Source: Eutreptiella sp. 'Long Island Sound 2002'
Lineage: Eukaryota; Protista; Euglenida
DNA length: 64,000 bases
Reading direction: 5' to 3'
Assembly: GCA_964036045.1 (NCBI GenBank)
Contig: OZ038379.1
Coordinates: 3,286,001-3,350,000, forward strand
Numbering within the stretch: the stretch's first letter is position 1; each line of letters begins with the position of its first letter. The translations under genes were made by a program, and so were the position numbers. Below are positions 3,420-61,497 of the stretch, piece after piece. The notes beneath the pieces were generated by a model that had not been told where the DNA came from, made no database searches, and worked only from the letters and a program-made list of their open reading frames with translations.

Positions 3420-3875
3420 CAGTTGTGGGGCATGTGCAGCCACGGAAGACGTCAAGGCTGACTCCGGAGGTAATGCCCGTCATGGTGAACGTCCCGCCAG
3501 GAAACGTGAAAAACTTGAACGACGACGACCCGGACGGCCCACAGTCCCGCGGGAACCCGACGTCGTTGTCGTTGAAGTTGCAGAACGTCCAGGCGTTCGC
3601 GTCGGCGATGGCGTCGTCCTCACTGCTGTAGAGCTTGAAGTCCGTGTTGAAGGTGTTGTAGGTGTCGGACCAGTAGGACGTGAACAGGGTGTGCGGGTCG
3701 AGGGCGTGGGGCATGCAGGTGAGGCGCTTGTAGATGGCAAACACGGCCCCATTGAGCACCAACCGCAGGACAGGGCACTGGTTGAAGATCTCGTTGAAGG
3801 ACTCGATACCGATGTCCAGCGTCGTGGCACTAGCATCCGAGCTCAGTTGCACGGCTGCTTCCCAGTCGGATCCAA
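3420..3875 (-). CDS. Exon of modular extracellular protein: Cys/Trp-rich module A, copy 2 (FNQCPVLRLVLNGAVFAIYKRLT...WTFCNFNDNDVGFPRDCGP)
   Basis: Acceptor cacaacag|, donor ACTG|GTGTGC; 456 nt, phase 1-1; GC3-rich codons; clear paralogue of 15952-16416. Confidence 0.88.
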
Positions 3876-15951: not shown

Positions 15952-16416
15952 CAGCGGTCGAGCTCGAGCTGGAGGCCGGACAACCACAAGCGCTGTTGTA
16001 GAGATCAAAAGTAGCACTAGAGGTAATTCCACTCATAGTCTTCGTCCCTCCAGGGAAGCTGAACCACGTCAGGCTCGCGGCAGAGCTGGGATCACAATCC
16101 CTGGGAAAACCAACATCAATGTCATTGTAGTTGCAGTACGTCCACGCATTACTGTCAGCGGTCATATCAGCTTCGGAGCTGTAGAGCTTAAAATCAGTAT
16201 TGAGGAGATTGTTGGCGTCGGACCAGTAGGAGGTGAACAGAGTGTAGGGGTCCACGTCGGTCGGCAGCCGGGTGATCCGCTTGTAAATGGCAAAGACAGC
16301 CCCGTTGCGTTTGTAGCGCAATGTAGGGCAGGCATTGAATGCGCTGTTGAAGGCCGTTGAGCCGACGTCAATTACTGTGTCAGTGGCATTCACCTCCACT
16401 AGTGTCACCCACGAGG
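15952..16416 (-). CDS. Exon of modular extracellular protein: Cys/Trp-rich module A, copy 1 (FNACPTLRYKRNGAVFAIYKRIT...WTYCNYNDIDVGFPRDCDP)
   Basis: Acceptor gcgtcgcag|, donor GCTG|GTGTGT; 465 nt, phase 1-1; paralogue of 3420-3875. Confidence 0.88.
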
Positions 16417-39216: not shown

Positions 39217-40063
39217 TTCTTGTTCCTCAAGGACAGCCCTGCTTGGCCATGCCCCTTGCAGCCCATGAGGCCGTCCGGCATCCTGCTCCGTCCGCATCAG
39301 TGCCGGATCAACACACCCCCTCAACGCATCAGCCGTCCGAATCCATTGCGCGCACTGCCCCACGACTGCCACTTTGACTCACCCTTTGCCACAAGCATTG
39401 GAAATGCACCAAACCAATCCCAACGCCGGTCCCGTCACAACGAGCGTCGGGTCCCGGAACCCCGCCGCTGTCGCCTGCACTCCAACCGCCGTCGGTTGCC
39501 CGCCAACCTCGTCGCCCATCCTCCAATCGCCGTCAATTACGCGTCAACTGCCGTCGCCGACTCCCATCAATTTTCCGTCAGCCGCCGTCGATCACCCTCC
39601 CTGGTGCTGCCAGAATCACGTGAGCGTATGGGCTGAGGCCATGCTTTGCGCTCGTGGGGCCATCGTGAGAGCGCACCTGACCAGACGTCGACAGGGCTGT
39701 TCGTAGCGCCTAAAACAAAACCTGCGGGACTCCAGTACACCTGCACCTCAGCAGTGCACCGGCTGGAGCAGTATCTGCTGTCCGTTGCTGGCCAACCGCC
39801 GTCGCTCCAGTCGCTATCGGCCGACCACAATCCTGCCACCCAACACCTCAAGCTGTCGTTTGCGGGGGGGGGGGGGGGGCGGATTCTCACTACTACAGGA
39901 CAGCCCTGGACGTGGTCGATGAGTCAATCTGGCAAACGTGTGGACCTCACCCCCTGTAATCGCACTGCACGGCCCTCCGCTTAAAGAGATTGTTCATTAG
40001 GATTCCGACACAACCCAACCACAGCCTGAAACGTGGCGAAACCCCAACTGCTTGCACTTGAAG

Positions 40064-40259
40064 AGGGCAACCTCCCTTCCAACCCGGGGATGTGGTCACA
40101 CTGTTCCACGAGTCGCTGTCCGGGTGGATGTACGCCACGCGGCTTGAGGGGGCCCTCTACGTTGACGAAACGGACCGCGAGCTGGAGTTCCAGAGCCCGC
40201 CGAACCCACAGGATTGCCTGTTCCGCCTGCACCCACAGCACCGCTTCGCAGCTCTGAAG
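40064..40259 (+). CDS. Exon resembling the N-terminal suppressor (beta-trefoil) domain of an inositol-1,4,5-trisphosphate/ryanodine receptor
   Basis: PFQPGDVVTLFHESLSGW...FQSPPNPQDCLFRLHPQHRFAALK aligns by eye with IP3R FLHIGDICSLYAEGSTNGF...[24 protein letters not shown]. Strongly GC3-rich; donor AAG|GTACCC. The acceptor (ttgaag| or gaagag|) is uncertain by 2 nt. Confidence 0.65.
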
Positions 40260-40897: not shown

Positions 40898-41407
40898 TCA
40901 GGCATCATCCGCCCCCGCAGGGGCCATGGGCTCATCGACACTTGCTGCACCGCCAGAGGCCGCAGGCGGTGGTTGCGCAAGGCCAAGCTCGACAAGGATG
41001 GGCCGGATGCGCGCCTCAAGCGCCGCCCGCGCGCTCGGGGGCGCAAGCCCCTCAAGAAACGCGCGCACGCGCTCGCGCTGGGCGGCCGTGCGAGCGCGCT
41101 CGAACACCTCCGGCGACGTGAAGAGCTCCCTCGGCGTCGGGTTGTGCTCGCACCGCATGACGTGCGGGTGGGCGTCGTTGCCGCAGTCCTGCTGGCACCA
41201 CGCGCAGAAGTGGCAGCCACACCGGCCGCACAGCAGCGCCGTGCAGCCCTCGTAGTCGGCGTACGCCGCGCGGCAGCGCGGGCACCGTTGCGTGAGCAGC
41301 TCCTCCTCCACGTGACGCTGCCAGCGCTCCACGTCCGACCCCAGGGCCAGCGATGCGCTGCTGCTCGGGGCCTCGGCCTCGGCGTCCTCCATCTCTTTCA
41401 CACGGAC
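40898..41407 (-). CDS. RBR-like E3 ubiquitin ligase, last exon: RING2/Rcat domain (LTQRCPRC...DYEGCTALLCGRCGCHFCAWC...DAHPHVMRC)
   Basis: Acceptor acgtctcag|GTCCGT; stop TGA at 40898-40900; Rcat-type Cys pattern including the GC-x-A-x-x-C candidate catalytic cysteine. Confidence 0.85.
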   Translation of the reverse strand, partial: VRVKEMEDAEAEAPSSSASLALGSDVERWQRHVEEELLTQRCPRCRAAYADYEGCTALLCGRCGCHFCAWCQQDCGNDAHPHVMRCEHNPTPRELFTSPEVFERARTAAQRERVRAFLEGLAPPSARAALEARIRPILVELGLAQPPPAASGGAASVDEPMAPAGADDA

Positions 41408-42059: not shown

Positions 42060-43028
42060 CTTCAGCTTCTCGTACTCCGCCACCTGCACCGCGTCCAGCG
42101 CCGCGTGCACCTCCGCGTCCGGGATCACCACCGCGCAGCCCGGGTCCGGGCACTGCAGGCGGCCCCCGTTCCGCCGCAGCCGCGCCAGGTTGTCGGTCTG
42201 GGAGGCCACGTACATCCCGGCGCACCCCCCGCACACGCAGTGCCCATTGGGGCACAGCACCCCGGCCTGGCACGGCTCCAGGCAGATGAGGCAGGGCTTG
42301 GGGGGCGTGAAGCGGCGCCCCTCCCTCTCCCGCTCCTGCTGCGCCTGCGCCTCTTGGCACCCGCGCACGTGCTCGTCCAGGGCCGCCTGCCGCGCCTCGC
42401 GCCCGCCGCCGCCCGGGAGGGGGCGGCCGCACCGGCCGTGCAGCAGCTGCAGGAGCGTGGGGGGTGGGGCCGCCCCCGGCGCCGCTGCCGCGCCTCCCGC
42501 CTCCGCCTTCACCCGCACCGCCCCCTCGTGCGGGCGGCTGCTGTGGTCGCCACCGGCGTCCCCCGCCGGAGTTGGCGGGGGCAGTGCGGGCTCTCCCGGC
42601 GGCTCCAGCTTCACTCCATCGGCTGCTTTGGGCTGCAACGGCGCGGGGGGCGGTGCCTGCCTCAGCGCCGCGGCCGCGCCTCCGGCCTCCGGCTGCGGGC
42701 CCTCTGTCTTCACTCTCACCGCCCCCTCCGGCGTGTCGCTGCTGCTGCGGCTGCGGCTGTGGCTGTGGCTGACGCCAGCGTCTCCCGCCGCCGCAGTGGG
42801 CGGGTGCATTGCCGACGGCTCCAGTTTCACTCCCGCGGCGGCTTCGGTCTTGTTGGGGCCCGCGGGGCCCTGGGCGGGGGGCCCGACCGCCTCCGGGGCC
42901 CGCAGGGCGGCGTCGTGGAACTCGCGCAGGGCCAGGCAGTCGACGCACGCGTCCTTCAGCACGGCGTCGAAGTCCCGGCGGGACTGCTCCTGCCGGCGTG
43001 TGGCCTCGTACACGGCCTGATCGGGCAT
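42060..43028 (-). CDS. RBR-like E3 ubiquitin ligase, main exon: low-complexity duplicated N-terminus plus C3HC4 RING1 (CLICLEPCQAGVLCPNGHCVCGGC...LQCPDPGC)
   Basis: ATG at 43028 lies 3 nt after an acceptor-like ccgccag|; donor CTGAAG|GTGATG; phase 0 join to 41407 gives ~492 aa. An upstream mini-exon MDPMWQ|GT (43571-43588) is a possible alternative start. Confidence 0.85.
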
Positions 43029-44711
43029 GACCTGGCGGGGCACGGCGGATGGCACTCCGCGGGTGGGACCGGACACGCGGCGCAGTCAGCGCCATCCCAT
43101 CGGCGACTCAGTGCCGGGGGAGGGGGAGAGGGGGGGATATTCCGTGTCGAGGAAACCCTGAGTCTACAACTTCGGGCGCGACAAGACCCGCGCCATTGCG
43201 TACAACCGAACGAACAAAGTATGCGGAGTTCGAAACAGTTGCTGACGAGAAAGAGTGGACGGTTGCTGGTATTCGCTGGTGGACTCTGGACGGCTGCTGT
43301 TATTTCCCGGGGGACTCTCCTGGTGCATCGACCCGCACGCTTGTGCGCACCCCATTGAATGCCCCAGGAGCCCTACAAATGAGGGAAGACCCCATCAGCA
43401 CTTCTGCGACTTCCCTGGGAAACTAATGATCATTAACCGAATCCTCAGGCATGGTACAAGTGAGCAAAGGCAGAGCCTAACGTGCACCCGTGCAAATCCT
43501 TAAAAACACCGAACAAACTCCCCCCCTCCGGTAATATTCGCTCCGTCCACGACCAGAACTCAGTAGGAACCTGCCACATGGGGTCCATGGCTCTGCATCG
43601 GATCGGGTCTGACGTGGCGGACGCTGGTGGCGACTCCAGGTGACGCCAAAGCCGTGGCTGGGCTGCGACCCACAAAGGGGGCGACTTGACGTTCGAAACC
43701 CAACGATCTCGCAGTTCGGCGCGGATGGAAACCGAGGCCCCCGTCAACGTTGCGAAAGCAGACGGACCGGGGGAAACACTGCGGGGGACGGGGGGTGCAA
43801 CGCTGGACCCAACCCCCCTGGGCGTGAGATGGGGGTCTGGGGTGGGCGATGGGGACCGGCTTTGAAACGACCCGCAAGCCTCCGCTCGGCTCTCGTCCCA
43901 GACTTGAGCAGCGCGCTGTGGTCCGCCAGTGGCAGTCCACGGAGCGTGGCCTTCGTGCGCCTCTCGTCGCTCCGTCGGGGGGGGAGGAACGGGGACCGTC
44001 TGGCCACCCACGTCGTGAGGGGGCCCTTGTGGGTTGGCGCCTGCCTCCTTCTCCGCCCCCCCTGTGTGACATTCCGTCTGGTTGTTGCTCCTTTACGGGG
44101 CCCTGGACAGTCACCCGTTCTCCCCTTCGCATGTTGCGTCGGGTGGCTGCTTTCTGTCGGCCGCTGCGGCCGGTGCTCTTGCTGGTGTCGTTTCCGCGTT
44201 CGCGGAGCCCAGTGGTTGGTGTGTTGGGACTGTGCTGAATGTGGCGGGATGTGCCGTTTGCGTGTCAGCGGCGCCCAATAATTGGCGTATTGAGGATGTG
44301 CTGGTTGTTGCCGGGGTCGTTTGACTGTTTTTGTTGTCCACACACCTCTGTCCACAGGCCGTCCATAGCCTGCCTCGCTGTGTTTCTGTGCGGTCCAGGT
44401 GCCCTGTTCCTCCACGCGCTGTCCGGGCCGTCCACCATATGTTCTTTTCCCCCTCACGGTTGGTCTGCCCCTGATGGGCTCCCACTCCTGTTGCGCAAAC
44501 AGCCCATCTGGGCTGCAGGAGACACCCCCCACCTGATGCCGGTTGAGCAGGGGTTGGCGCCTGTCTCCTTCTCCGCCCCCCCCCCCCACCCCCCAACAGC
44601 CGCCTTCTGGTGGGATCTGCTCCGTTGCGCTGGGACAGTGCTGTCGTGTTGCTGCGGACCGTGCTCGCATCTCTCGACGAGTGCCTGCGCGAAAGCACAC
44701 GTCCGAGGGGG

Positions 44712-46308: not shown

Positions 46309-46965
46309 TCAGGGGCCAGAGCGCACCTCCCACGTCGGCAGCATCTGCGTCTTGAACGCCCTCTGCCGCGCCAGCCACTGCCCCGTCTCCATCCGCAGCC
46401 ACCCCTTCTCCAGCAGCGCCCGGTCCGCCGCGCTGGCCTCCGCCAGCCGCGACAGCTCCGCGCACTCCTTCCGCAGGTGCGCCAGCGCGCACTCCGCGCG
46501 CGCCAGCTCCTCCGGGGTGTCCCCCAGCGCCGCCACCTGCGCCTCCAGCCGCCGGATCTGGTCGCGGTAGTGTTGGAAGTCGCGCGTCTGCTCCTCCCGC
46601 TCGAGCTCCATCTGCCGCTGCTGCCGCGCCCGGCACTCCGCCACCGCCGGGCCGAGCGTCGCGCGGTAGATGCGCGTCGCGACGCGCCACATCGCGGGCC
46701 GGGCCGTCTCGAGGCCGGCGTGGGTGTCGCGCCGCACGGCGCGCCCGGTCGCCTGCACGACCTCGGGCCAGCCCTTGGGGTGGGGCTCCAGCAGGTGCAC
46801 GTGCTGCACCCGCAGCAGCGTCAGGCCCTGGTTGGCGTCGTGGGAGCCGAGTAGGGCCTGCACGAGGGGGCGGCCGTCGGCGCGCCGCAGCCCGTCGTGG
46901 CGGGTGCCGTCGGCGGTGAGGCGCCCGAAGGCCGCGAGCAGGCGGCGGCGTTGGAACGTGGGGCC
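46309..46965 (-). CDS. SF2 helicase gene, last exon: motifs V-VI (QGLTLLRVQHVHLLEP...QATGRAVRRDTH) plus C-terminal coiled coil
   Basis: Acceptor ccgtccgcag|GGC; stop TGA at 46309-46311; motif wording matches NCLDV D11/D6-like helicases (EG+.L..VRQVHILEP...EQ.IGRA+R..SH). Confidence 0.88.
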   Translation of the reverse strand, partial: GPTFQRRRLLAAFGRLTADGTRHDGLRRADGRPLVQALLGSHDANQGLTLLRVQHVHLLEPHPKGWPEVVQATGRAVRRDTHAGLETARPAMWRVATRIYRATLGPAVAECRARQQRQMELEREEQTRDFQHYRDQIRRLEAQVAALGDTPEELARAECALAHLRKECAELSRLAEASAADRALLEKGWLRMETGQWLARQRAFKTQMLPTWEVRSGP

Positions 46966-48028
46966 CTGCGGACGGGGGTCGGTGGCGGGGGACCGCGAGG
47001 AAGCAGAGGGATGGGCGAACGCGTGGCAACCGACAGGAACGAGCAAAAGTGGCGAAAACAGTCAACAGCAATGGCCCAATGGAGACTGGAGGATGCGTGT
47101 TTTTTGGTAGACGTCGATTGTTTCTCTTCGTTTCGGGCATTGGTGTGACATTCTGTGCGTTCTTGGTCTCCCTCGTCCCGGTTTTTGGTGGATCTTGGTG
47201 GATTTTGGTCCATTTTTGGTGGTTCTTTACGCGTTTTTGTCATTTTTGGGTCCTTTTGGGGTCATTTTTGCCAAACTTTGACGCCTTCCGGCCACTTGTA
47301 CTGGGCTTTGGGGGCTTTTGTCCAGGGGTGCATAAAGTGTTGCGGAGTCATGCCTTTCTTGAAAATGCGGGCCTGATGGTGCCTTCCATTCTCCCCACGT
47401 GCGGCACGTGTGGCGTGTGCGGTATGTGTGGCAAAGGTGCCATCGGCGTGTGTGGCATATGCGGCATGCATGTCAAATCGCGTGCTTTTCAGGCCACCGC
47501 TTGGACATATTTCAAGGTCATGCATGGTTCGGCAGGGAGACGAACACACGCACGACGGGAACCGCAGCAATAGCAGGTCACGGTGAAATGGTCGCCCATG
47601 GGATCGGCGTACGGGAGGGTAGACACGGCAGACAAACAGGAGAATCGCTACTCCCGTCCGCACGCGGTATCCCACGTGGCGCAATGTGCGATGACGCACC
47701 TGGAAGCCCCCCAAGTTGCAAACTTACAAACACACACGCGCATGCACATACACACACACACACACACGTACACATGGTGAAGCAGTTTTTTTTGAAACAA
47801 AAAGTGTTCTTGCGCAGACCCCACATGTTAAATCCCAAAATGTCCTTGGCAATTCTGGCCAAAAGACAAGCAATTTGCATTGTGTAATTTTACATTTGCA
47901 ATTTCAAACTTTCTTGCCTTCAAAACGCCATTTTTCAATCGATCGATCGATTTTTCGGTTTTTCGGTTTTTAGGGCAATAGCAAACAAGCACTGAGAACA
48001 CGCGTGCGCGCACACCAACAAACTGCAC

Positions 48029-48322
48029 CTGCAGCACGACAAAAGTCAGTTGGTCCGGGTGGTCCAGGGCACGAGGCGCAATCAGCCTCAGCCCCGTCTC
48101 AGCCACGGGGTCAGCCCATCGGAAATCGTCAGGGAAGAGCTGCTTGGCGATGGGGTGAGCATCTGCCGCTGTGGCGTGGGTCCGTGCGAGACATTGTGCC
48201 AAGCGGGTGATGGTGCATTGGTTGCTGGAGTACACAAAGTGCTTGGTCTCCAGCGCTTCAGTGTCCGGGGGGCTCAGCAGGAAGTTGGCGAGGGCCACAA
48301 ACTTGGGGGACAGATCAGAGAC
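48029..48322 (-). CDS. SF2 helicase gene exon: start of RecA2 lobe and motif IV region (LSPKFVAL...KHFVYSS...FVVLQ)
   Basis: Acceptor cggaacag|GTC, donor CAG|GTGCAG; 294 nt, phase 0-0; the spliced junction reads FVVLQ|GPTFQRRRLLAAFG. Confidence 0.82.
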
Positions 48323-49447
48323 CTGTTCCGGGGGCGTGCGTGAGTCTGAGGTATGGGAGTCCTTGACAAAAGTACCCCCCAGATTTGTGGTCTTTGCGGA
48401 CCGGCTGCTGATCGACGGCGGTTGGCGGTCAACCGACGGCGGCTCGGTTATTGCGGCGCAACGGACGCCGGTGTGGCAAGCCTTGTGCTTACCTCCCCTG
48501 CAGCACGTTTGCGCGTGGAGGGTCGCTGTAAGTCCTCCGGGAGCGCGGCGTGACTTTTCAGCTACTGTTTCTACGGTTCGCACCTGCTGTCTGGTGGGGT
48601 TGACCACTGAGCTACCGAGTGTACGATAGGCGCTGAATGGTGGGGCCTGCGCAGCCCCTCCGGATTCGAGCGCGACCCATCTCAGGGCTTTCTCCGCGTG
48701 TCACTCTGTGGGGCTGACCGGATACGATTCCAGGACCTCCAGGGGGCTCGAACAACCCCACCCCCCCCCACCCCGCGCGCAAACCATTTTTCCCCCTCCC
48801 AGGGCGTCGCATGTGGGTGGATGGTGAAGAGATTGTATGGGGGTGGTAGGAGAAGACGCGGCATGCAAATGGTGCTGGGGTGTGTCGGCGCTTATGCTAC
48901 AGCCTGCACAGGACCTCAACAGGACAGGGGGGGGGGGCATATCCCTTGATCTCTGTACACCCGATGCCTTCGCCGATCTGAAAATTACCCATGCACTGCC
49001 CTTCTAGCACTCGAGCTGTGCTGCTGGTCCCTCTACAACCCATACCGCCTACATACCACCCCAACGTTACCCGCATGCCAACAAGGTACTCCCATTGTTG
49101 TCCATACTGGACCTGGACCCCCTTCAATACCCCTCCAAGTCCCTTGTGACGGGCCCCTATCGTCTCCTGCAAAGCTGCACGTGTCTGATCATGTCCCCTG
49201 CTCCACAAGTTAGACCCGCGCTTGATGGGGTGGAGGGGCCCCGGGCCCTGTGGGATGACAGTGAGTGCGGCCACGACTGCATCGGGCTGCTTGTAACCGC
49301 CAGAACCTGACCCCCAACCGCATTTTCAACCGACAGCGGCCATTTTGCAACCGCGCTTAGAACCCAACTTCAGCCCCTCGCAAGGGCAGCGCGCTGCCCC
49401 CTACGCCCAGCACAGCGCACCTCCGTCAGCACCGGGGCCGGACTCAC

Positions 49448-50014
49448 GTCCAGCCTGGCACATAGCCCGTTCGCCGACCCGCCCCACAGCACCGTGCCGG
49501 CGGCCTGCATGTGCCTCGCGCTCAGCACCGCCAGCTTCCGCGCCGCCCCCCCCTCATCCAGCCCCAACGGGTCGAACAGCTCCGCCGGGGTCTCCACGTT
49601 GGCGGTTCGGACCCGCGGCAGCCCCAACCGGCTCACCAGCGCCACGTGCGGCAATGCCAGGGGGCAGTCCACGACGCAGTGGCCGGTGTCCTGCGGGAAG
49701 TGGGAGTAGTCGTGGCTGCCCTCCACGAACGAGACGAGGCCGCGTGCGTGCGCCGCAAGCCGGGTCTGCCAGCCTGGCGTCTCCTCCAACAGCGGGTGGT
49801 GCGGGCGCCGCGTGCGCGCGGCGCGCACCAGCTCGAGCTGCAGCAGCACCTCCGCTTTGGACCGGCCGGGAGTGCCAGACAAGAGGAAGGTCTTGCCGTT
49901 GGGGCTGCGTGTCAGGGCTTCCAGGACCGTGCCCCAGAGCGCGTCCCGGTCACAGACACGGTCGTTGAAGAGCTCGTGGGACTCGTCGATGATGACGGCG
50001 GCGTTGCGGAGCAC
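49448..50014 (-). CDS. SF2 helicase gene exon: motif II (VIIDESH) and motif III (LLSGTP)
   Basis: Acceptor cggcacag|GTG, donor GAC|GTGAGT; 567 nt, phase 0-0. Confidence 0.88.
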
Positions 50015-50142
50015 CTGTGCCGAGGTGAGGTGAGGTGAGGTGAGGTGAGGTGAGGTGAGGTGAGGTGAGGTGAGGTGAGGTGAGGTGACATGACGTGACG
50101 TGAGGTGACGTGACATGAGGTGGAGGCGAGGTGAGGTTAGGT
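50015..50142. repeat. (TGAGG)n / minus-strand (CCTCA)n pentamer array abutting a helicase acceptor site
   Basis: Directly visible; a related degenerate patch lies at ~59147-59185. Confidence 0.95.
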
Positions 50143-50181
50143 GAGCCGCCTCTCTTGCCGAAGCAGGAGGGCACAGGCTGC

Positions 50182-50281
50182 ACCTGCTCATGCAGTCTCC
50201 CACGGTGTTGTCCTTCCTAGGGACATACACCATTCTGAGGTCGAACTTGGCCAGGGTCTCGTGCTAACGAGCCCTCCGTCT
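50182..50281 (-). pseudogene. Ty3/Gypsy RNase H C-terminal remnant (RRRAR*HETLAKFDLRMVYVPRKDNTVGDCMSR)
   Basis: Matches the gypsy motif R..RW...L..FDF.+.Y.PG..N.VADALSR, with the Trp codon changed to TAG; no flanking RT or integrase seen. Confidence 0.75.
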
Positions 50282-50664
50282 GTGTTCTCTGCTATGTTAT
50301 TGCTGTCGACAACCAGTGGGGCCCATTCAAATCGAAAACTGCGCTGAGGCCTGCGCACTTATTCCGGCGGGAGTCCCCCTGGTGGTCGTGCGACCGGGGC
50401 GCCAGGGCGAAAAACAGGTCGCAAGGCTCAGCGACACCGCGGTGCCCCGTGCGGGGCAGGCCGCACTGGAGGAGCACCGTGCGGTGACATCCAGCAAGGG
50501 GGGGGGAGGGGAAACAGTGCGCGACACAAGGACTTCCGGGAAGGATATTGGAGCCCACCTCCTGCCTCCTGGCCATGAAGCGACATGGCCCGTTTTCGTC
50601 CCCAGGTCACGTGTGTGACCATGAGCCATTTTTTTTCATTCACTGGGATTGTGCGATCCCCCAG

Positions 50665-51063
50665 CCTGGATACCCCCAACCGTGACGCCGTGCGGCTGTG
50701 GACGGCTCTGGGGCCCGGGCTCTGCCGTGTGGCAGCAACTAGACACCAGGTGTGCGCCTACCCCTGCCTGGATACCTCCAACCGTGACGCCGCGCGGCTA
50801 TGGACGGCTCTGGGGCCCGGGCTCTGCCGTGTGGCAGCAACCAGACACTAGGTGTGCGCCTACCCCTGCCTGGATACCCCCAACCGTGACGCCGCGCGGC
50901 TATGGACGGCTCTGGGGCCCGGGCTCTGCCGTGTGGCAGCAACCAGACACTAGGTGTGCGCCTACCCCTGCCTGGATACCCCCATCCATGACGCCGTGCG
51001 GCTATGGACGGCTCTGGGGCCCAGGCTCTGCCCTGTGGCAGCAACCAGACACCAGGTGTGCGC
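50665..51063. repeat. 102-bp tandem repeat, ~3.9 copies
   Basis: cctggatacc begins at 50665, 50767, 50869 and 50971. Confidence 0.96.
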
Positions 51064-51197
51064 TGTGAGCGTCAAGAATAGTGCAGCGTTGGGCTTTGGT
51101 GGTAGCGAAGCCTAGGGCATTGTGTCTCGCCGTGGACGAGGAGAGGGCTAGGCTGGGTCGTCGGGAACGAGACCACTGCCAGCAGCGATGGCCAGCG

Positions 51198-51990
51198 ACT
51201 TTTGGCAGAACTGAAGGCATTGGGCGTGTGCCCATGCAGAATTTATTACTTTTGGCAGAACTGGGAGCATTGGGCGTGTGCCCATGCAGAATTTATTACT
51301 TTTGGCAGAACTGAAGGCATTGGGCGTGTGCCCATGCAGAATTTATTACTTTTGGCAGAACAGAAGGCATTGGGCGTGTCCCCATGCGGAGTTTATTACT
51401 TTTGGCAGAACTGAAGGCATTGGGCGTGTGCCCATGCAGAATTTATTACTTTTGGCAGAACTGGGGGCATTGGGCGTGTGCCCATGCAGACTTTATTACT
51501 TTTGGCAGAACTAAAGGCATTGGGCGTGTGCCCATGCAGAATTTATTACTTTTGGCAGAACTGGGGGCATTGGGCGTGTGCCCATGCAGACTTTATTACT
51601 TTGGCAGAACTGGGGGCATTGGGCGTGTGCCCATGCAGAATTTATTACTTTTGGCAGAACTGGGGGCATTGGGCGTGTGCCCATGCAGACTTTATTACTT
51701 TGGCAGAACTGGGAGCATTGGGCTTGTGCCCATGCAGACTTTATTACTTTTGGCAGAACTGAAGGCATTGGGCGTGTGCCCATGCAGAATTTATTACTTT
51801 TGGCAGGCCTGAAGGCATTGGGCGTGTGCCCATGCAGAATTTATTACTTTTGGCAGAACTGAAGGCATTGGGCGTGTGCCCATGCGGAGTTTATTACTTT
51901 TGGCAGAACTGGGGGCATTGGGCGTGTGCCCATGCAGAATTTATTACTTTTGGCAGAACTGAAGGCATTGGGCGTGTGCCCATGCAGAAC
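51198..51990. repeat. 50-bp minisatellite, 16 copies (TTTTGGCAGAACTGAAGGCATTGGGCGTGTGCCCATGCAGAATTTATTAC)
   Basis: Period 49-50 bp, head-to-tail with no spacers; variants at the GAAG/GGGA/GGGG and AAT/ACT positions. Confidence 0.97.
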
Positions 51991-53011
51991 TGCCGTGGGG
52001 GGCGACGGGGTTGGGGGGGGGGGGGGACGTGGGGGAGACGAGAGCGACGCGATGGGCGTTGCGCCCGCCGCGGTGTGGCGCCGTCCAGCCCGGCCCGGCC
52101 GGGGCAGCCGTATCCGGTGCGTCCGGTGGAATCGGTTCCGGGCACAGCAGACACCAGACACCAGACACTGCGCACTTATTCCAATGCGCATTGCAACACA
52201 TCTGCACTAACCACCTTAAACAGAAATTACAGTACAAAGCAGCGGACGCACAAATACTGCCATTTTATTATTTCGAGTATCCGAAGACAACTGCGAATGA
52301 CAGTTGTCGACTGGTCATCAATTGATCATTGTCAGTCGGAGGTTGGCAATTAGTCATCGACGGTTGAGTTAATCGCCAGCAGTTGGTTACTTATCGCTGG
52401 CGGCGGTGCATGCCCCACCCACTCAATCATTCCTCTCCTATGCCAAGATGCCTTGTTTTGTCGATACTTGGTGTCTGCATGTTACAACAGTCAGGCACTC
52501 TTGGCTTGGTGTTGTCCTTCATGCACAGAGGTAGAGGTGGGAGGCATGAAGCAAGGGGGCAAGGAAGGGGGGGGGGGCGGGTCCGACACATAACACACAC
52601 ACACACACACTTGTGCAGGAATCAAACGATAAAACCACTGATGTTTATCACGAGCACAGCAAATCGGCTCGCACCCGTAACACGTCATCAGGCCAGTGAG
52701 CAATCAAAACAGCACAAAGCAAAGTAAAAGCATTGAAGCTGCCATGAAGTCATAAGGCTAGGCGCCTCTGCAGGGGTGTAACGGACGAGAGTACAGTGTA
52801 TGCATATCATCAGCAGGTGAGTCACAAGCACTTGAACTGACCCTGTTCCTAACACCCCAGCCAGGGAGGGGAGGGAACGAATCTGGACTACGCAGCAGCC
52901 CTTACATGCCCGGAACAACCACTGTTCATTAAACCTTGCTCTGCGTGCATACCTGGGGGCTGGGGACACACACACACACACACACACCGATGCACCACAC
53001 CATCACAACAC

Positions 53012-53205
53012 CTGTGCCGGCCCACGCTCTGTACAAAACCGCGTGAACTGTCGGAAAGTCATGAAGTTGCGCTTGTACACCGCAGGGCCACGGGGCCGAT
53101 ACCGGAACGCCCTGACGAGCCCCGCGACGTCCGCTTCTGTTGGCGCACGGTCCAGCGCAAACGACGGTGCAAACTGCAGCATTGAACGGGCGCACTGGTC
53201 GAAGC
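53012..53205 (-). CDS. SF2 helicase gene exon between motifs Ia and II (GFDQCARSMLQF...NFMTFRQFTRFCTERGPAQ)
   Basis: Acceptor tgtctcgcag|GC, donor CAG|GTGTTG; 194 nt, phase 1-0, exactly bridging the phase-1 end of 55356 and the phase-0 start of 50014. Confidence 0.78.
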
Positions 53206-53361
53206 CTGCGAGACAGAGCGGGCAATGGGGCTCCAGGGGGTTGCTGCGGTGCCTACACGGCTCCTGGCGCAAACGGCTTTGATTCTCGCTGGTGTGAGTG
53301 GCACTGGTGGAGGTCGAGAGACGGGCCGCGTTCGGACCCTGACCAACCCAACCATTGGAGT

Positions 53362-53430
53362 TGTACAGCTGTGTCTCAATGGTGAATCACCGGAAATCCA
53401 GGGGATCCCGGGTTCGAACCCGGTTACTGA
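53362..53430 (+). mobile_element. Degenerate tRNA-like / SINE head
   Basis: gtctcaatggtgaa (A-box-like)...ggaaatcc...cccgggttcgaacccgg (B-box/T-arm); no convincing acceptor stem. Confidence 0.45.
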
Positions 53431-53499
53431 GCTCATCAAGTCACGCTCCACTACTAGGGTGCAGATCTATCGCTCCCCTGTCCATTGCCACATTGATAC

Positions 53500-54655
53500 C
53501 AACCAAAAAAACTGCCCCGTTTAAATTTTTCCTTGCTGTGAGTTGTGTAATTACTGGGAAAAAAAAAAACAGACCGGTGGAAAAAAAATTTGTCGGCACG
53601 TGCAATTTTTTTTGTGGTAAGTGGTGTAAAAAAAAATTGGAAAGTGAAAAAGAAAAGAAAGGCCACTTTTTGCAATACGTACGCAATATGTACAGTTGCC
53701 GGGTTCATACGGCACCCCGCAGCGACCTTAATAATGCACCGTTGAGTCCACAAAGCACAAAGTACTCTGTGTGGCAAGCATTTGATTGGGACTCAGCCAA
53801 TATAAGGATATGGAAAGGGGTGAGAGTGACATCCACTCAGAGTACCTGCCACCATGAAAAATGCAACTCATGTAAAAAAAAATCGTCAAGTTGTGTCTTT
53901 TTTTTGGCGGTAAAGTTGTGTAATAATAGCATGTTCATACACTCCACCTTTGGTACACCAAATAGGTGGAGGAAAAGATAGTAACACGAAAAGTCTGCAA
54001 ACATGCACCCACTACAAGTAGTTGCAAAATGCACGTTCGTAGATGAGGTCAGTCGTTGTATCGGAGGACTTGGGCTTTGCACCAGGACTAGTGTTCCACT
54101 TACAAGCCTTAGGCAAATCAACTACCAACTGCTTGGTCACCTCATTGATGAAGTGCTAGTCACGCTCCAGCTGGCCAGATGCATCTTTGAGGGAGCTATC
54201 TGGCACCTTGCGCCACTCTCCACCGATGAGGCCCTTCAGACGGGTGTCCTCCTCTTTGGTACCAGTGGCCATGGAAGGTTGCGCCCTAGGTTGTGGGCCT
54301 TCCGGGCTTTGCTTGGAGGAGGAATCCTTGCCTTTGAGCGGGGTGGGGGTGGTCTGAACACTCTCATGAGTCTCAGAAAGTGCACCTTGAACTTGGGTGC
54401 TGGGGGGACACAAGAGGGCAAGGAAGCTCAGTCTGCATTTACCGCAAAAAAAAATTGCACAGCGGCACAATTTTGGTTTACTCGTGTTTACCGCCAAAAA
54501 AAAAATTACACGATGGGACAATTTTTTTGTACTCATGTTTTCTGCACAATGGGACGGTTGTTTTGCACTCGCGTTTACCACAAAAAAAAATTACACGACT
54601 TTACTGCCAAAAAAAAATACACAGTTTTGCATTTTTTTTGTACTCGCATTTACCG
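53500..54655. mobile_element. Possible non-autonomous element with inverted A-tract-rich subterminal repeats and a decayed internal ORF
   Basis: gtgcaatt(T)n-g.ggtaa at ~53600 is the reverse complement of ttaccgc(A)n-ttgcac at ~54440; A/T runs repeat at both ends. Confidence 0.4.
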
Positions 54656-55103
54656 GCCCCTTTCCAGTTGGGTATGGACTAGCCCCTTTCCAATGGATAT
54701 GGACCAGCCCCGTTCTAGTTGGGGATATGGATTGGCCACTTTCTAGTTGGGGATAGGGGCTAGCCCCTTTTCCAGTTGGGGATATGGATGGGCTCCTTTC
54801 CAGTTGGAGATATGGACTGGCCCCTTTCCATTTGGGGATATGTACTGGCCCCTGTCTAGTTGGGGATGTGGACCAACCCCTGTCCGATTGGGGATGTGGA
54901 CCAACCCCTTTCCATTTGGGGATATGGACTGGCCCCTTTCTAGCTAGGGATATGCACTAGCCCCTTTCTAGTTGGGGATATGGACTAGCCCCTTTCCAAT
55001 TGGGGATATGGATTGGCCCAGTTCCAACTAGGGATATGGACTGGCCCCTTTGCAATTGGAGATGTGGACTAGCCCCTTTCCAGTTGGGGATATGCACTGC
55101 CCC
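54652..55103. repeat. ~28-bp minisatellite (ATATGGACTGGCCCCTTTCCAGTTGGGG), about 16 diverged copies
   Basis: Directly visible tandem periodicity. Confidence 0.93.
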
Positions 55104-55355
55104 CAAAAATGAGGTGATGGGCTCTCACACTTCGGTGTGGCTCCTTGAGTTGGGGTGATGGACTCCCAAAGCCTCGTTGTGGCCGGAAATAACTCCCACC
55201 AGCCCCAACGGGGAAATAATCATGGGGCATGGGCACAGTGAAACGTCTCCGTTGGAAATGATTGTGTTGCAGTGTGTCGTGTTGCGGTGCGTTGCAATGT
55301 GTTGTGTTGTGGTGCGTTGCAATGTGTTGCACATGTGTTGCACGTGACAGCAGAC

Positions 55356-55575
55356 CGTTGTGCCGCGTGTTCTGCGGCGTGGATACCACGTAGACGTCCA
55401 GCTCCGAGAAGTACAACAGCTCCAGCAGCAGCGCCACCATCACACTTTTGCCGGAGCCCGGGGTCCACCAGTACAGACAGCCACGCACGTCAGGGGTCGC
55501 CAGCACCTTCTGCGCGTGCTTGTACCCCGCCGCCTGCCACGCTGTCAACACCGGGGGCGCCGCGCGTGCATCCAT
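55356..55575 (-). CDS. SF2 helicase gene exon: Q motif (LTAWQ), Walker A (WWTPGSGKS), motif Ia (VYVVSTP)
   Basis: Acceptor ttctctgcctctcag|ATG, donor AACG|GTCTGC; 220 nt. From this ATG the five helicase exons total 1932 nt (643 aa plus stop). Confidence 0.85.
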
Positions 55576-56982
55576 CTGAGAGGCAGAGAAGTCTGGCGCA
55601 GTCTTGGGTTGGGCTTGGAGTGGAATTTCGCACCAGATGGCTTCGCAGAGCACCTCCCATCCAATTGGCTAAATAGTGCACCAGCAGCCCCCAGTCTGCC
55701 CACAGCCCCTGAACCGGTCTCCTCCCACCCACTCTGACGCAGTCGCGGGCATTCTTTGATAGCGCAAAAAAAAAAAATTTCCGGCGTCCAGTACACTGAG
55801 CCTGGCGGTCTGAGGGGAGTCGACGGCACTCTGAGTATAACCACCGGTTGAGAAGGCAGCGATGGCGGTTGGAGCCACGGCGGTTTGAGGGCAACCTACG
55901 GCGGGTGGGAGGGATGTGGGGCGGAGGGGGGGCCTTGAACATAACAAAGGAAAAACAAGACAAAACCTACCGTGTCCGTGCAGGCCAGGCTGCTGTCTTG
56001 ATCTTGGCATGTTACCGGGAATCCATGAAGCCCTGTCCGATTAGGGCACGCGCGCGGTGCAAATACTGGGGGCTCTTGTGGTGGTGGCCATCCTTCCGGG
56101 TGGGGGGGTGTGGGGGCGTGGGGGCCACAGTCCGGGGCATGAGGGCATCGGCACAGCAGGGCAGTCCCTGTTGTGTGTGCCACAAATTCGATTTGCACAC
56201 GTTTCGGGGTCCATCTTCCAGCAAAACTGGGGTCGGTCCGTCCGGACGGTCAGGCCCGTTTGGCACTGCGGCGCGGCAAATAAAAGCCCCCCAAACCAAG
56301 ACGCCACAGGCCCACGGCGACGTCCTCTATTACTGTGGCGTGGTCTGAAACGGGGCGGTCTTTTAGGGGAAGAAATGGGCTCCTTAGCGACCGCCCTGGC
56401 TCGGGCTCCGACATGCCTCAAGGCCTGGCAGCTCCGGAGCAGCGCATTGCGAACCCCCATACCGGGGGGGGGGGGGGGGCTGCAGCGGGAATTTTCGCTG
56501 TGGGATATTTGGCGCTTGGAATTTGTGCGAAATTTCGGACACAATTTTCAGGCCGCTGTGCGAAATAAACCCGCTTCGAAATTTAGCGAAATTTCTTGCA
56601 ACGCATGGTTTTCCGTGCCTTCTCCCACTGTACATGCTAATCACGCTTCCAAGGGCTCCCGCTTTGCATTGTCCACATTGGAAATAGTAGCCCCACAGCC
56701 ACAAACAACCATCATCCAACAATGAGGTCTTGTATGCATGCAGCAGGGGGGGAAACAGCAACCAAAAATAATACATCACTTCATCTTGACCCAGCCACAT
56801 GCAACCCTGAGACCCCCCTGTGTATAACAGCGGGGGCTCCTGGGCCAATAACGCACCAACCAAAGCAAACCCCCACCCACCCAGACCCCCCCCTCTTGCG
56901 AAATAGCTTGATTTCTGAAGCCTGCCCATGGGGGTCCAAATGAACCCCCTGGCCAGCCACAGCTGACCGACCCACCCTCCCA

Positions 56983-57262
56983 CATCAGAAAAATTTTACT
57001 CGTGACGATCAACGGCAGGAGGCTTCAAAAATGGTATTTGACAGCCGGTTACAAGAAATGCGTAGTGAAGTATGGGTAAAACAGTTGCCCATCTGTCATT
57101 TGCGTCACCGGGGCAAAAAGTTGGCCACTCAAGGCTGTACCAATCCAATGGGGCGGCCTGGAAAATTGACCCACGACAGAACCACGGCGTTGAAGAGCTA
57201 TTTTGATGAGGTACGCGCTGAAGGTGCATGTGTAGATCGTGAGTGTATTGCAATTTGGCCAC
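56983..57262 (+). pseudogene. Possible pogo/Tigger (Tc5, CENP-B-type HTH) transposase N-terminal remnant
   Basis: KNFTRDDQRQEA...GRPGKLTHDRTTALKSYFDEVRAEGACVDRECIA resembles the GR...L...E..L..W+...R..G..V....I pattern; no DDE domain follows. Confidence 0.45.
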
Positions 57263-57284
57263 GGATTTGGTGGCAACCCTCCCG

Positions 57285-57470
57285 GAAGTCACAACAACCC
57301 ACCAGGAAGGAACAGCAACCCTCCCAGAATTAACAGCAAGCCACTGGGAAGGGACAACAATCCCCCAGGCCTCACCAGCAACCCATCGGGAAGGAACAAC
57401 AACCCTCTAGGACTCAACAACAAAGCATCAGCAAACAACAGAAACCACCAGAAATTAACAGCAACCACCA
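57285..57470. repeat. Degenerate 21-bp tandem repeat (reads NNPPGRN-like on +)
   Basis: caacaaccc...ggaagg units recur about every 21 nt. Confidence 0.7.
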
Positions 57471-58237
57471 GCAAAGGCAGGCTCACAGCATGTGGGTGCG
57501 AAATTTCCCACTGCAAATTCAGGGCTGCATGCCAAATAAAGCCGCTTTGAAATATCCCACGGGGAAAAATCGAGGTGATTCCCGCCATGAGAGCCCCCCC
57601 TTGTACCACTGCCCTTCCCGCCATGAGAGCCCCCCCCCCCCCCCCCTGTACCACTGCCCTTCCCGCAGACCCGCATCTGCAGCGGCCGCGGTCTACCCTG
57701 CTGTGGCCGTGGCATGAGAAAAAAAAAGGCTGTCGTAAACCCCTTTCCCGTTTGGGCTGCTCTTCACGCGGCAGGTGCACGGTGCAACAACGGCGGCTTG
57801 ATATACCACCTCTTGTCGTCAACTGCATCTCGAGGCATGGCCTTGGGTTTGGGTTTGGGGCTGGCTGAGCGAAGCACGAGCGCACTCGCGCACATGCGGT
57901 GCGGGAAGCGCCTCGAATGGCGTTGGGTGTGCCAGACATCACGGTGCCATTGCGAGATCCTTGGCGACTCCCGTTCTGTATCATCGGAGGCTATTGGCAC
58001 ACATGCACCACTTCTGTGCACTACACGGGACACTGCAGGGGCGGTGACAGGGGGCCCTAAATGTAGCCCAAGTGTGCAGGCGACACAAAAACCCCATTCA
58101 CGGCCACAGAGCCATGCCACAATGGGAAATGCACCCACCCTCTGTTCTGGCAGGCCCAAAGAGCAACAAAAAACCGGCTGAGATCCGTCAAAACCCGCCC
58201 GGATTGCCCTGACGCAACGCATGGACGGGCAGCGCAC

Positions 58238-58631
58238 CGAGGCCTTGCACTGCGGGGCCATCTTGTACGACCCCAGTTCACTCGTCCAGTCGTGCCCCGG
58301 GGCCGCTGCGGCGGAGCCGCGCATGAACGCGCGCAAGAACGCCTGGTAGCCCTCCGCCTGCGGGTGGGGCCAGTCGTCCGGCAGAGGGCGTGGCTGGCGC
58401 CTGCGAGACCCAGGGGCACGGCACGTGTAGCGGTACTGCACCGTCGCGGGCAAATATCCGCAGGGCCCATCCCCCTCGCCCTCTGGGTCTGCCTCCTCGT
58501 CCCCGGCAGCCGGGTCCAAATCCATTCCGTCTGCCTCTTCGTCGGTGTCGGGGTCGTCCGGGGGTTCCGGCTCTGAGTCCGATCCGGACTCTTCGTCAAA
58601 AAGGGACTGCACCACGTCCTCCGTCTTCACC
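58238..58631 (-). CDS. Probable upstream exon of the helicase gene: acidic tract then FLRAFMRG...SYKMAPQCKAS
   Basis: Acceptor ttatctcag|G, donor TCG|GTGCGC; 394 nt, phase 2-0, in frame with 55575; GC3-rich. Confidence 0.65.
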
Positions 58632-60567
58632 CTGAGATAACGGTGAGCTGATGCCAGGGAAGTAGGAGGTTGGGTGCGGGGGGAGGTCTGGGACCCAAAG
58701 GTTTGTGCACCAAAAAAAATAAACAAAAAAAAACAAAAATGGCCCGATCAGATTTTACCCGCTGTAAATTTCGTGTTTCCCCCCGTGGTCACTTTGGTCT
58801 GGCTGGGGGGGGGGGGGGGCACGAGGCCATGGTGTTCGTTCGTTTGCCTTTGGCGGCGCCCATTGGCCTCTCGCCACTGCACACGCCGACCCTCTGTGGG
58901 TCCGAACGTGTTTTGGTTGTGTCAGCGGAGCCACTGGATGACTTGTCCTGTTTGACTACTTTGGGGTCGGCTGTCCCGGAGACGGGCTGTTGCCCGCGCC
59001 GTTGACCAGGTGCATCCAGATGCACACTCCGAGTCCATGCTGGGTTTGCCGACTCCAGCACTCTGGCGGGGGGGGAGGGGGGGGTCCAGGAAGAGGGGTA
59101 GCCCCGTCCTCCTACGGTGTGCGGCCCTTCTAATACTTCCCTGGGTGAGGTGGTGTGATGTGACGTGACGTGAGGCGACGTGAGGCCCAGGATGCGAGCG
59201 TAGTGTTGCCTCCTACGCCCAGCTCAGCCGGGGCTCGAACCAGGTCCCTCTGGTTCCGGCCACGTGCCTTAATAGCTGAGCCACGTGACCTCCTTCCCCT
59301 GAGATGACAGGCCGTGTATTGATGCAACCAATGCTCAATCGGGGGGGATGGGGGGGGGGGGGTGGCACAAGGCCTCGGTATTAGATGTGGGGGGGGGGGC
59401 TGGCACAAGGCCTCGGTATTAGATGTCGGGGGGGGGGGCTTTCCACTGCGGGTTGAGGGTTAGAGACCCCTGACCGGAACGCCCCCTGAAAACAGGCTCC
59501 ATAGGTCGAGCCCCAAATCCAAATCCAAGGCCGCCATGGACGTCACCCGGACCCAAAAAGGGAAAGACTGAAAGTGGTATTTTCGAATTAGCACGAGACG
59601 TGCCAATGGCTCAGGAAAGCCCTCGTCCAACGGGTGTTCAATGAAACAGATTTCTCCGGCCATTCTTAGACGGTTTCCTCGCCGCGGTCAGATTTCCTAG
59701 TGCTGATCAATTGGCCCCTGGCCCTCCTACTACTCGGCCCCACTGTTTTGCAACAACGAAAACCAAAGCACCCAGTTTACCCAGTGTACGAGGATGCAAT
59801 GGGTAACTCGGGTCCCGCATATCAACTGCCAGACAAAATGTCGTATCAGGGGCTTAGAGCCCCCAAAAAAATTGGCTTCAGGTCCCGATGCACCTCTGGA
59901 TATGCTACCTTCGGCCTCTCCTGTTGTCCCCCATCATCGTTGGTGCATACAAGCGGCCTCTCACACTGACTCGTGTGTCACCAGACGCTGTTGTTGATCC
60001 CTCTTCGTGCCTCTTGGGTGCGCTGCTCGGTCCACATTCACATTGCCGGCACCTGATCACCTCCACTCCTTCTATTGCACGACACCGACGTCTTTGAAGC
60101 ACGGCGGCCCCCGGCCAGGAACACTGCAACAAGAGGCCTCAGCACGGGCACACAAGCGTTCATGGCATCCCAAATATCCCCAAACAACAGCTGCGCTTGT
60201 TTACAACAGAATTCAGACTGCAAAGACTTGCACCAGAGGCCTGAGAGAAGCCCGTAACGCAGCCTGTGCTTGGACAAAACTCCTGTGTAGAGGAATCCAA
60301 CGAAAAGAAAAAGACAACAGCCCAGGCACTGTTTGGCACGGCGCCACCCTTCATGTCATTTCTCGGGCCTCAGGCCGGTGCCCTGGTCTCTCGGGCTCTG
60401 GCCGCTCTCCTGCAGGTCCGGTAACGTGGGTATCCCGGGGGGCAGCGCGGCCCCCATGTCTGGTGGCCTACTGGAAGCCACCCCCCCCTCCCCCGGGGCC
60501 CAGATGGTGGGCGAGGTATTCGCCGGGTCTGAACACAGGCTCATCCAATCTAGCACCCGCCGCTCAC

Positions 60568-60881
60568 CCCACTTCCCCAGGCGGACCGGCCCGCTGCCCC
60601 TGCAGGGGGGGGAGAGGTGGGCGTTCGCATGCCCCGGTCCGGGCCTCCGAGGGCCCCTGGCGATCCCACTTCCCCGCAGCCGTGGACGCAGGAGAGGGGC
60701 TGGGGCTGGGTCCGGGGCGGGTACCAGGAACGCCCCCGGGGGCCGAGCGGGGCGTGGCCCTGCGCCGCCCTGGGTCGCGTGCCGGAGAGGTCCGTCGAGG
60801 GCCTGGGGGGTGCATCTCACATGCCATGGGCGGCCGATATGCAGAGTCGTCGCGGACGCCATCGTGCTCCCCCGGGGCGTC
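60568..60881 (-). CDS. Probable upstream exon of the helicase gene: Pro/Arg/Gly-rich disordered linker
   Basis: Acceptor ggctcacag|GAC, donor GG|GTGAGC; 314 nt, phase 0-2, matching the phase-2 start of 58631 (junction reads EVG-VKTED). Confidence 0.55.
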
Positions 60882-61119
60882 CTGTGAGCCTTAAGATCGG
60901 CCACCACATCCAAACCCACTTCCCCACTCCCTCATCTGCCCTCCCCCACCCCACCCCACCCCTTCAGACCAGCCACGTAGACATCCCCCCCGCCCCACTG
61001 CCCATCCCTCCCTCCTTCAATCCCCTCCTTTACTGGAAGGGGGCACACCAGCCACAAGCAGGTCCCATGTCCTCGTTCTTCGGTCCAGGGGGCAGGGGGC
61101 CGGTGTGCCCACTCGGCAC

Positions 61120-61497
61120 CGGAGGCGGCGGCGAATCCTGCAGCTGTGGGCTGCCAGTGGACAGGGGCGTGGGCGCACGCTCCGCCTCCGGCTTGACCAG
61201 CCTTCGCAGCCCAGCCGAGGCTGGCCCAGACGCCCGTTCCAGGTCCTCCGGGGGCTGCAGCGCACAGAGGGCGTAGCGTATGGGGCGCTTGGAGAGCTGC
61301 ACAAAGGTCTGGCGATGGCCGTCGAGCATGCGCTTCAGGAGCTCGCGGGCCCCATCCCGATTCACAAAGACTTGCTGGTACAGCGGCTCCCCTAAAGCAG
61401 CCTCCACGAGCTCGTCCAGATCCGCGCCCTGCGGCTTTCCAGCCAATGCCACAAGCGCAAATTCCTTCAGTGACCCATGCGTTGACGCCGCCTGTTC
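61120..61497 (-). CDS. Probable upstream exon of the helicase gene: winged-helix-like domain (LKEFALVALAGKPQGADLDELVEAA...ARELLKRML...TFVQLSKRPIRYAL)
   Basis: Acceptor gtttgcag|GAA; three-helix plus beta-hairpin pattern; donor uncertain (CCG|GTGCCG is the only phase-0 GT). The start codon is not located. Confidence 0.55.

Follow-up and report, generated by a model that had tools for sequence, protein, structure and literature searches.

The gene in the window

The window analysed here is a stretch of 64,000 nucleotides (nt) from the euglenid Eutreptiella sp. 'Long Island Sound 2002' (contig OZ038379.1, positions 3,286,001 to 3,350,000). On its reverse strand lies an intron-split gene predicted to encode a helicase of the D6/D11 type, the type of vaccinia NPH-I and VETF, joined to a RING finger and a RING2/Rcat-type zinc finger. 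In an original prediction, five GT-AG exons had been spliced into a 643-residue protein carrying the motifs of superfamily 2 (SF2) helicases in order. These exons do lie where they had been placed, each with AG before and GT after it, and together they give 643 amino acids (aa) and one stop, with all of the quoted motifs present in order. Splice sites, splicing and junction scoring bear this part out, except that the donor of the third exon moves from 49448 to 49421. The corrected model has eight exons and 1271 aa in a frame that is open throughout. Its features, with one putative exon further upstream, are as follows in window coordinates.

61258..61497, reverse strand: putative upstream exon, possibly helix-turn-helix (good acceptor, coding-like codon score, GC content at third codon positions (GC3) 0.72, weak likeness to the N-terminus of homologue P0001, 91 open joins)
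58238..58631, reverse strand: exon with acidic linker and the family's pre-helicase signature (tblastn of P0001-P0005, E 3e-8 to 4e-17; junction scoring)
55356..55575, reverse strand: exon with Q-like motif, Walker A (TPGSGKS) and motif Ia (57-72% identity to homologues; junction scoring)
53012..53205, reverse strand: exon with the middle of RecA lobe 1 (splice sites, homologue match, junction scoring)
49421..50014, reverse strand: exon with Walker B (IIDESH) and motif III (LSGTP) (moved donor, viral profile)
48029..48322, reverse strand: exon with SPKF and motif IV (KHFVYS) (splice sites, homologue match, junction scoring)
46327..46965, reverse strand: exon with motifs V and VI followed by a coiled-coil insertion (donor ahead of the originally predicted stop; homologues)
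42060..43031, reverse strand: exon with terminal D6/D11 helix (LKDACVDC), low-complexity linker and RING (shuffle test of helix and RING)
42135..42293, reverse strand: RING finger, RING1-like (Pfam zf-RING_UBOX E 0.0008, below cut-off; TRIM25 RING E 0.018; aligned in six family members)
40898..41407, reverse strand: last exon, with RING2/Rcat-type zinc finger, helical tail and stop (Pfam IBR_2 E 0.0011, below cut-off; shuffle test)
41150..41284, reverse strand: Rcat-type finger (41245-41243 encodes the predicted catalytic cysteine; where a histidine is usual there is alanine; 2LWR and CUL9 matches)

The exon structure is established by homology. P0001, an unspliced open reading frame (ORF) of 1291 aa, matches all eight exons in order, with 42% identity over 907 columns and 28% over 371. 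All open GT/AG pairs within 60 nt of each junction were scored with a profile of 17 homologues only, and the called junction was the best-scoring pair at 58238|55575 (of 17), 55356|53205 (of 26), 53012|50014 (of 3) and 48029|46965 (of 8). In intron 4, donor 49421 exceeded 49448 by 17.7 bits and gave the best of 18 pairs, the alternative 49444|48345 scoring 2.7 bits below 49421|48322. In intron 7, which was scored against full-length homologues, the exact position of 42060|41407 was tied among 23. A profile of 78 viral helicases that included no family member matched two of the 1047 six-frame ORFs of the window, both of them helicase exons (E 2e-5 and 1.2e-3; next ORF 0.24). When the terminal helix, the RING and the Rcat-type finger were compared with P0001, none of 2000 shuffles was as good in any of the three cases.

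The protein had been predicted to end at the TGA at 46309. However, donor 46327 leads into exon 43031-42060 and from there into exon 41407-40898, neither of which had been recognised and which supply the last helix of the helicase, the RING finger and the RING2/Rcat-type finger. A stand-alone helicase of 643 aa, with the RING and Rcat exons belonging to a separate gene, would make sense of the in-frame TGA at 46311-46309, but it would be without the terminal helix common to viral copies. Five unspliced homologues continue past the equivalent of 46309 into a RING, and junction 46327|43031 is the best of 6 against full-length homologues; we consider two separate genes very improbable.

Three further exons had been proposed upstream. 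One of them, 58631-58238, is supported by tblastn and joins 55575, while the other two are unproven, since the 91 open joins available to them mean that phase compatibility is not evidence. The winged-helix domain suggested for this end is weakly supported: of 3000 shuffles, 83 were as similar to the P0001 N-terminus, and no helix-turn-helix was matched in Pfam.

The gene thus carries at least seven introns, which measure 652-3295 nt, have 49-61% GC and contain tandem repeats, a eukaryotic style. Arrays at window 50659-51989 and 54656-55103 consist of 102 nt x4, 50 nt x16 and 28 nt x16. A duplication of about 70 residues lies in coding sequence between helicase and RING (window 42400-42850, reverse strand); it includes four VKxE motifs and is absent from P0001. 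A fifth VKxE motif opens exon 58631, and all five match the SUMO consensus.

Helicase type and family architecture

The original prediction assigned the helicase to the NPH-I/VETF (D6/D11) proteins of nucleocytoplasmic large DNA viruses (NCLDV), and on the strength of its sequence it is of this type. When a helicase-only family profile (A6) was searched against the PDB, vaccinia NPH-I was the only significant match (E 3.3e-7); the other four of the five matches at E<=10 were not helicases, and no SNF2 or DEAH protein was among the five. The terminal helix D..+Y...LK[DE].A[VI]DC occurs in 54 of the 78 viral helicases and has the same spacing in the window. In a deep search, the family was followed by D6/D11-type proteins; profile scores are 65-143 bits for the nearest D6/D11 subfamily, up to 36 for other giant-virus copies and under 1 for SNF2. 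Placement within cellular SNF2 was looked for and not found: SNF2-rel_dom reached at best 20.3 bits, under its cut-off of 24.9, and the tree, in which SNF2 is represented by bacterial proteins only, sets the gene apart from SNF2. SNF2-rel_dom was likewise absent from all 33 scanned D6/D11-type proteins (one family was hidden for three of the 33).

The folds were compared by means of a predicted model of the relative P0034 (mean predicted local distance difference test score (pLDDT) 59.8; mostly 70-90 in the helicase, below 50 in the RING and PARP parts). Against viral folds the model gave E-values down to 2.5e-18, and 15 of the top 22 were named, all 15 of them Nucleocytoviricota. Among the 50 best solved structures, VETFS aligned the most residues (453); Rad5 was also among the matches. 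In the Atlas, exon 3 alone ranked a bacterial SNF2-like cluster first, and a longer query returned viral clusters in all nine rows listed (six Nucleocytoviricota and three Uroviricota).

Some results weigh against the D6/D11 assignment. Neither the single-sequence nor the first-profile search of the PDB found a helicase, and the P0034 model did not separate NPH-I from SNF2 among solved structures: Mot1, Chd1 and ISW1 rank above NPH-I, and by Z score SNF2h comes first (19.7 vs 16.6 for VETFS), while NPH-I does not appear among the top 50. In separate searches, NCBIfam and PHROGs gave generic or no helicase matches, and Rfam gave nothing. With vaccinia NPH-I (D11), the VETF small subunit (D6) and the NCLDV D6/D11 proteins the gene shares motifs I-VI, the LK..A.DC helix, the PDB match and its position in the tree. 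It differs from them in being a nuclear gene with introns, a coiled-coil insertion and a fused RING plus Rcat or PARP, and from poxvirus NPH-I proper in that P0001 gave no match to NPHI_C (PF08469) at E up to 0.5.

D6/D11-like helicases are also encoded by Pseudanabaena phage PA-SR01 (L089 823-2619) and by Salmonella phage Arash (L090 1406-2824), in the latter after the gene for the RNA polymerase beta subunit. In one giant-virus D6/D11 helicase (L007 2746-5706), the chain is split at Walker A by about 300 additional residues that resemble an intein.

A one-off intronised viral gene, as originally envisaged, is not what was found. Homology places the gene in a eukaryotic family that is conserved, bears introns and ends in either RING-Rcat or RING-PARP. 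Profile searching gave 25 family proteins, including the window's own fragment and KAJ1483366.1 of the cryptophyte Baffinella frigidus, and the deep search, which covered 1.84 billion representatives, returned 32 matches at E<=1e-30, 203 at 1e-10 and 803 at 1e-3. A screen of 109 candidates yielded four metagenome loci, of which L003-L005 are intron-split at other positions; two junctions of L003 (950-3404) seem to have GC donors. In eight proteins the alignment breaks off at the same place, model residues 633-636, which suggests a shared intron. The window protein and P0001 paired in quick trees (83 and 91), but not in the careful tree described below. Word-based scans, which miss distant copies, found no close family relatives in viral contigs (one distant match), prokaryote genomes, phages (best E 0.2) or plasmids (best E 0.01).

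In the six members whose C-terminus was aligned, the RING follows directly after the helicase and its metal ligands align in all six. What comes after the RING varies: an Rcat-type finger in the window protein and P0001, and a PARP domain in P0014, P0015, L002 and P0100, with PARP matches in the family at E 2.9e-21, 1.7e-14, 5.6e-16 and 2e-14. The N-termini vary as well, with two FHA domains in L004 (FHA E 4.4e-15) and weak SAM, UBA and CUE matches below cut-off.

The last finger matches parkin RING2 (2LWR, E 0.0025) as well as CUL9 (E 0.0028); the catalytic cysteine is aligned, as it also is in P0001. The arrangement resembles RING-between-RING (RBR) ligases such as parkin, CUL9, HOIP and ARIH1, in which a RING is followed by a RING2/Rcat-type finger. 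Unlike them, the window model has no IBR: between RING and Rcat there is a cysteine-free linker of 66 aa, and of 58 aa in P0001. As P0001 is unspliced, the intron of the window gene conceals no IBR. An RBR ligase has, by definition, RING1, IBR and RING2, and RNF216 is active without the active-site histidine (PMC7458406). Under this definition the module is not an RBR, yet it is predicted to work like one.

This prediction has to be set against the missing IBR, the replacement of the active-site histidine by alanine in the window and by methionine in P0001 (the histidine is not universal among RBRs), RING and IBR_2 matches that stay below the curated Pfam cut-offs, and two proteins, P0085 and P0089, with no RING after the helicase. 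The predicted fold of the P0001 RING-Rcat part is poor (pLDDT 51.7, RING rows misaligned).

Origin of the motor

The careful tree contained 41 rows and 447 columns, was rooted on bacterial SNF2 proteins and was computed under LG+G4 with no mixture. To prepare it, 14 of 51 earlier rows with long or redundant branches were removed, and P0124 and three cyanobacterial SNF2s were added. From the root, phage D6/D11 proteins branch off first, then one giant-virus clade, and then a node (100/99) which unites the subfamily of the confirmed viral contigs L092 and L093 with a clade (99/97) of three bridging proteins plus the family (100/100). Three strong nodes (100/99, 99/97 and 98/94) leave non-family D6/D11 proteins outside the family. 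A constraint that grouped all 29 non-family D6/D11 rows, named after earlier trees had been seen, was rejected by the approximately unbiased (AU) test (p-AU 0.0007). The scores of L092 and L093 are 82.6 and 66.6 bits. In sequence, the nearest viral subfamily is about 25-30% identical. The virus-derived origin of the original prediction is supported by this tree and the AU test, and we hold a virus-to-eukaryote transfer of the motor, judged from these comparisons, to be highly probable.

The bridging proteins P0102, P0114 and P0124 have the family's pre-helicase signature, and Pfam finds no RING or PARP in them. That these three closest non-family proteins come without name or taxon counts against a viral source, and the eukaryotic label of P0085 and P0089 comes from clustering alone. 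P0114 has 1538 aa and lies on a contig of 554,427 nt; this contig may represent the genome of a giant virus and offer the most promising route to the donor lineage.

Alternatively, the family may be an old cellular SNF2-like ATPase lineage, parent or sister of viral D6/D11, with no virus-to-host transfer. Its long stem (0.73 in the careful tree, 2.05 in an earlier one), the uneven composition under a model without mixture, and an outgroup of three cyanobacterial SNF2s, two of them nearly identical, would all fit such a history. However, it runs counter to the three strong nodes, the rejected 29-row grouping and the drop in profile scores from the nearest D6/D11 subfamily through other giant-virus copies to SNF2. 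D6/D11 has also been reported as ancestral and monophyletic in NCLDV (Yutin and Koonin, PMC3493329). We regard a purely cellular descent as improbable.

Another possibility is that the locus is a pseudogene, or what is left, in decay, of a giant virus that had integrated. Protists are described as commonly having giant endogenous viral elements, which gain introns (PMC12455990). Yet the gene has 1271 codons without a stop and motifs that are all intact, and its exon GC3 of 0.88 is host-like: two other putative host exons have 0.92 and 0.88, and a viral copy 0.22. No Pfam match was obtained for the 27 scanned of 344 other candidate ORFs in the window, and the region has 50-77% GC, whereas the Euglena elements are reported as low in GC, from 25% (PMC12455990). 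A remnant or pseudogene is the least probable of the explanations that we considered. Host-like GC3, intact motifs and intron sets that differ among members point to an old domestication rather than a recent insert of that kind, and the gene is likely an ancient acquisition from a giant virus.

Elsewhere in the window, a coding-like stretch at 40062-40250 on the forward strand ends about 650 nt from the gene's stop and gives a weak SH3_9 match (E 0.0012); its wording presumably resembles the N-terminus of inositol 1,4,5-trisphosphate receptors. Two similar coding-like exons (YKR.T...DP.TLFTSYWSD) at 3475-3828 and 16214-16285 on the reverse strand have high GC3 and no Pfam match, and probably belong to a host gene with repeated domains. 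Between 18600 and 24100 there are several kb of degenerate CAA-type triplet repeats.

Possible function

The gene had been interpreted as encoding a transcription or chromatin ATPase. The RING and Rcat at its C-terminus shift the likely function to that of a motor-coupled ligase. NPH-I is the ATP motor for termination and promoter escape in vaccinia (PMC10965686). In the mechanism that we infer at every step, the helicase would bind DNA or a protein-DNA complex and hydrolyse ATP with translocation, as NPH-I does at the vaccinia polymerase. The coiled coil inserted ahead of the terminal helix would pass on the state of the motor, the RING would recruit E2-ubiquitin and transfer ubiquitin to the Rcat cysteine, and DNA-bound proteins nearby would be tagged. 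In the sister clade the output would come from PARP instead of Rcat.

The most likely setting for such a device may be the surveillance of foreign, that is giant-virus, DNA or of its transcription complexes. Taken as a whole, the proposal of a D6/D11 helicase with RING and RING2/Rcat, captured from a giant virus and acting as a DNA-gated ubiquitin ligase in foreign-DNA surveillance, is a tentative one. The patchy family, its swapped outputs and the viral motor favour defence, as with ZNFX1. ZNFX1 likewise combines a nucleic-acid motor, a stalk and a ubiquitin ligase in innate immunity, but its helicase is an SF1 RNA helicase and its ligase domains are of the RZ and Miz-like kinds, and the likeness is one of analogy and not of homology (bioRxiv 10.1101/2025.10.14.682297).

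On the other hand, no result obtained here favours defence over repair, and FHA, RING and PARP fit work on DNA damage too. With the same gene and origin, the protein could have a housekeeping role as a Rad5/SHPRH-like motor and ligase that removes or labels transcription or replication complexes stalled on the host's own chromatin. The FHA and PARP domains of relatives and the five SUMO-like motifs of the window model favour chromatin or repair, and the SNF2-like fold of the P0034 model points the same way. Patchy families with swapped ends are more usual for conflict genes, and this family is patchy, with swapped ends and variable N-termini, which counts against housekeeping. That NPH-I acts on RNA polymerase (PMC10965686) would suit a housekeeping motor. 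We rate the housekeeping explanation somewhat below foreign-DNA surveillance, a repair or chromatin role being nearly as likely.

Rad5, HLTF, SHPRH and the plant helicase-RBR ligases also place an SF2 ATPase and a RING or RBR ligase in one chain, but their ATPases are of the SNF2 or DEAH type, not D6/D11, and the RING of Rad5 lies within its ATPase. The plant proteins, the Helicase RBR subfamily (PMC2904391), are described as having the full RBR. Each part of the protein is already known and helicase-ligase fusions exist; what would be new is a family of eukaryotes that derives from D6/D11 and ends in RING-Rcat or RING-PARP. No report of such a family was found in a full-text literature search that left most subscription papers and supplements outside its range; it might be listed, for example, in some supplementary table on viral gene transfers. 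No viral relative of the Rcat exon was found in our search.

A broader and somewhat more doubtful possibility is that microbial eukaryotes made a giant-virus transcription motor into an antiviral sensor-effector family with a swappable output, either an IBR-less RING-Rcat ligase, which would be a minimal new form of RBR, or PARP. The motor would then recognise the viral DNA or transcription complexes on which it evolved to work. D6/D11 helicases are regarded as core genes of large DNA viruses. Here one appears to have given rise to a eukaryotic family that is conserved, bears introns and carries host signalling domains on either side of the motor, which makes it a clear example of a giant-virus gene domesticated for good and not of an insert in decay. 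The family provides a natural test of whether a RING and Rcat pair can function without an IBR, and it offers a testable candidate for the defence of protists against giant viruses.

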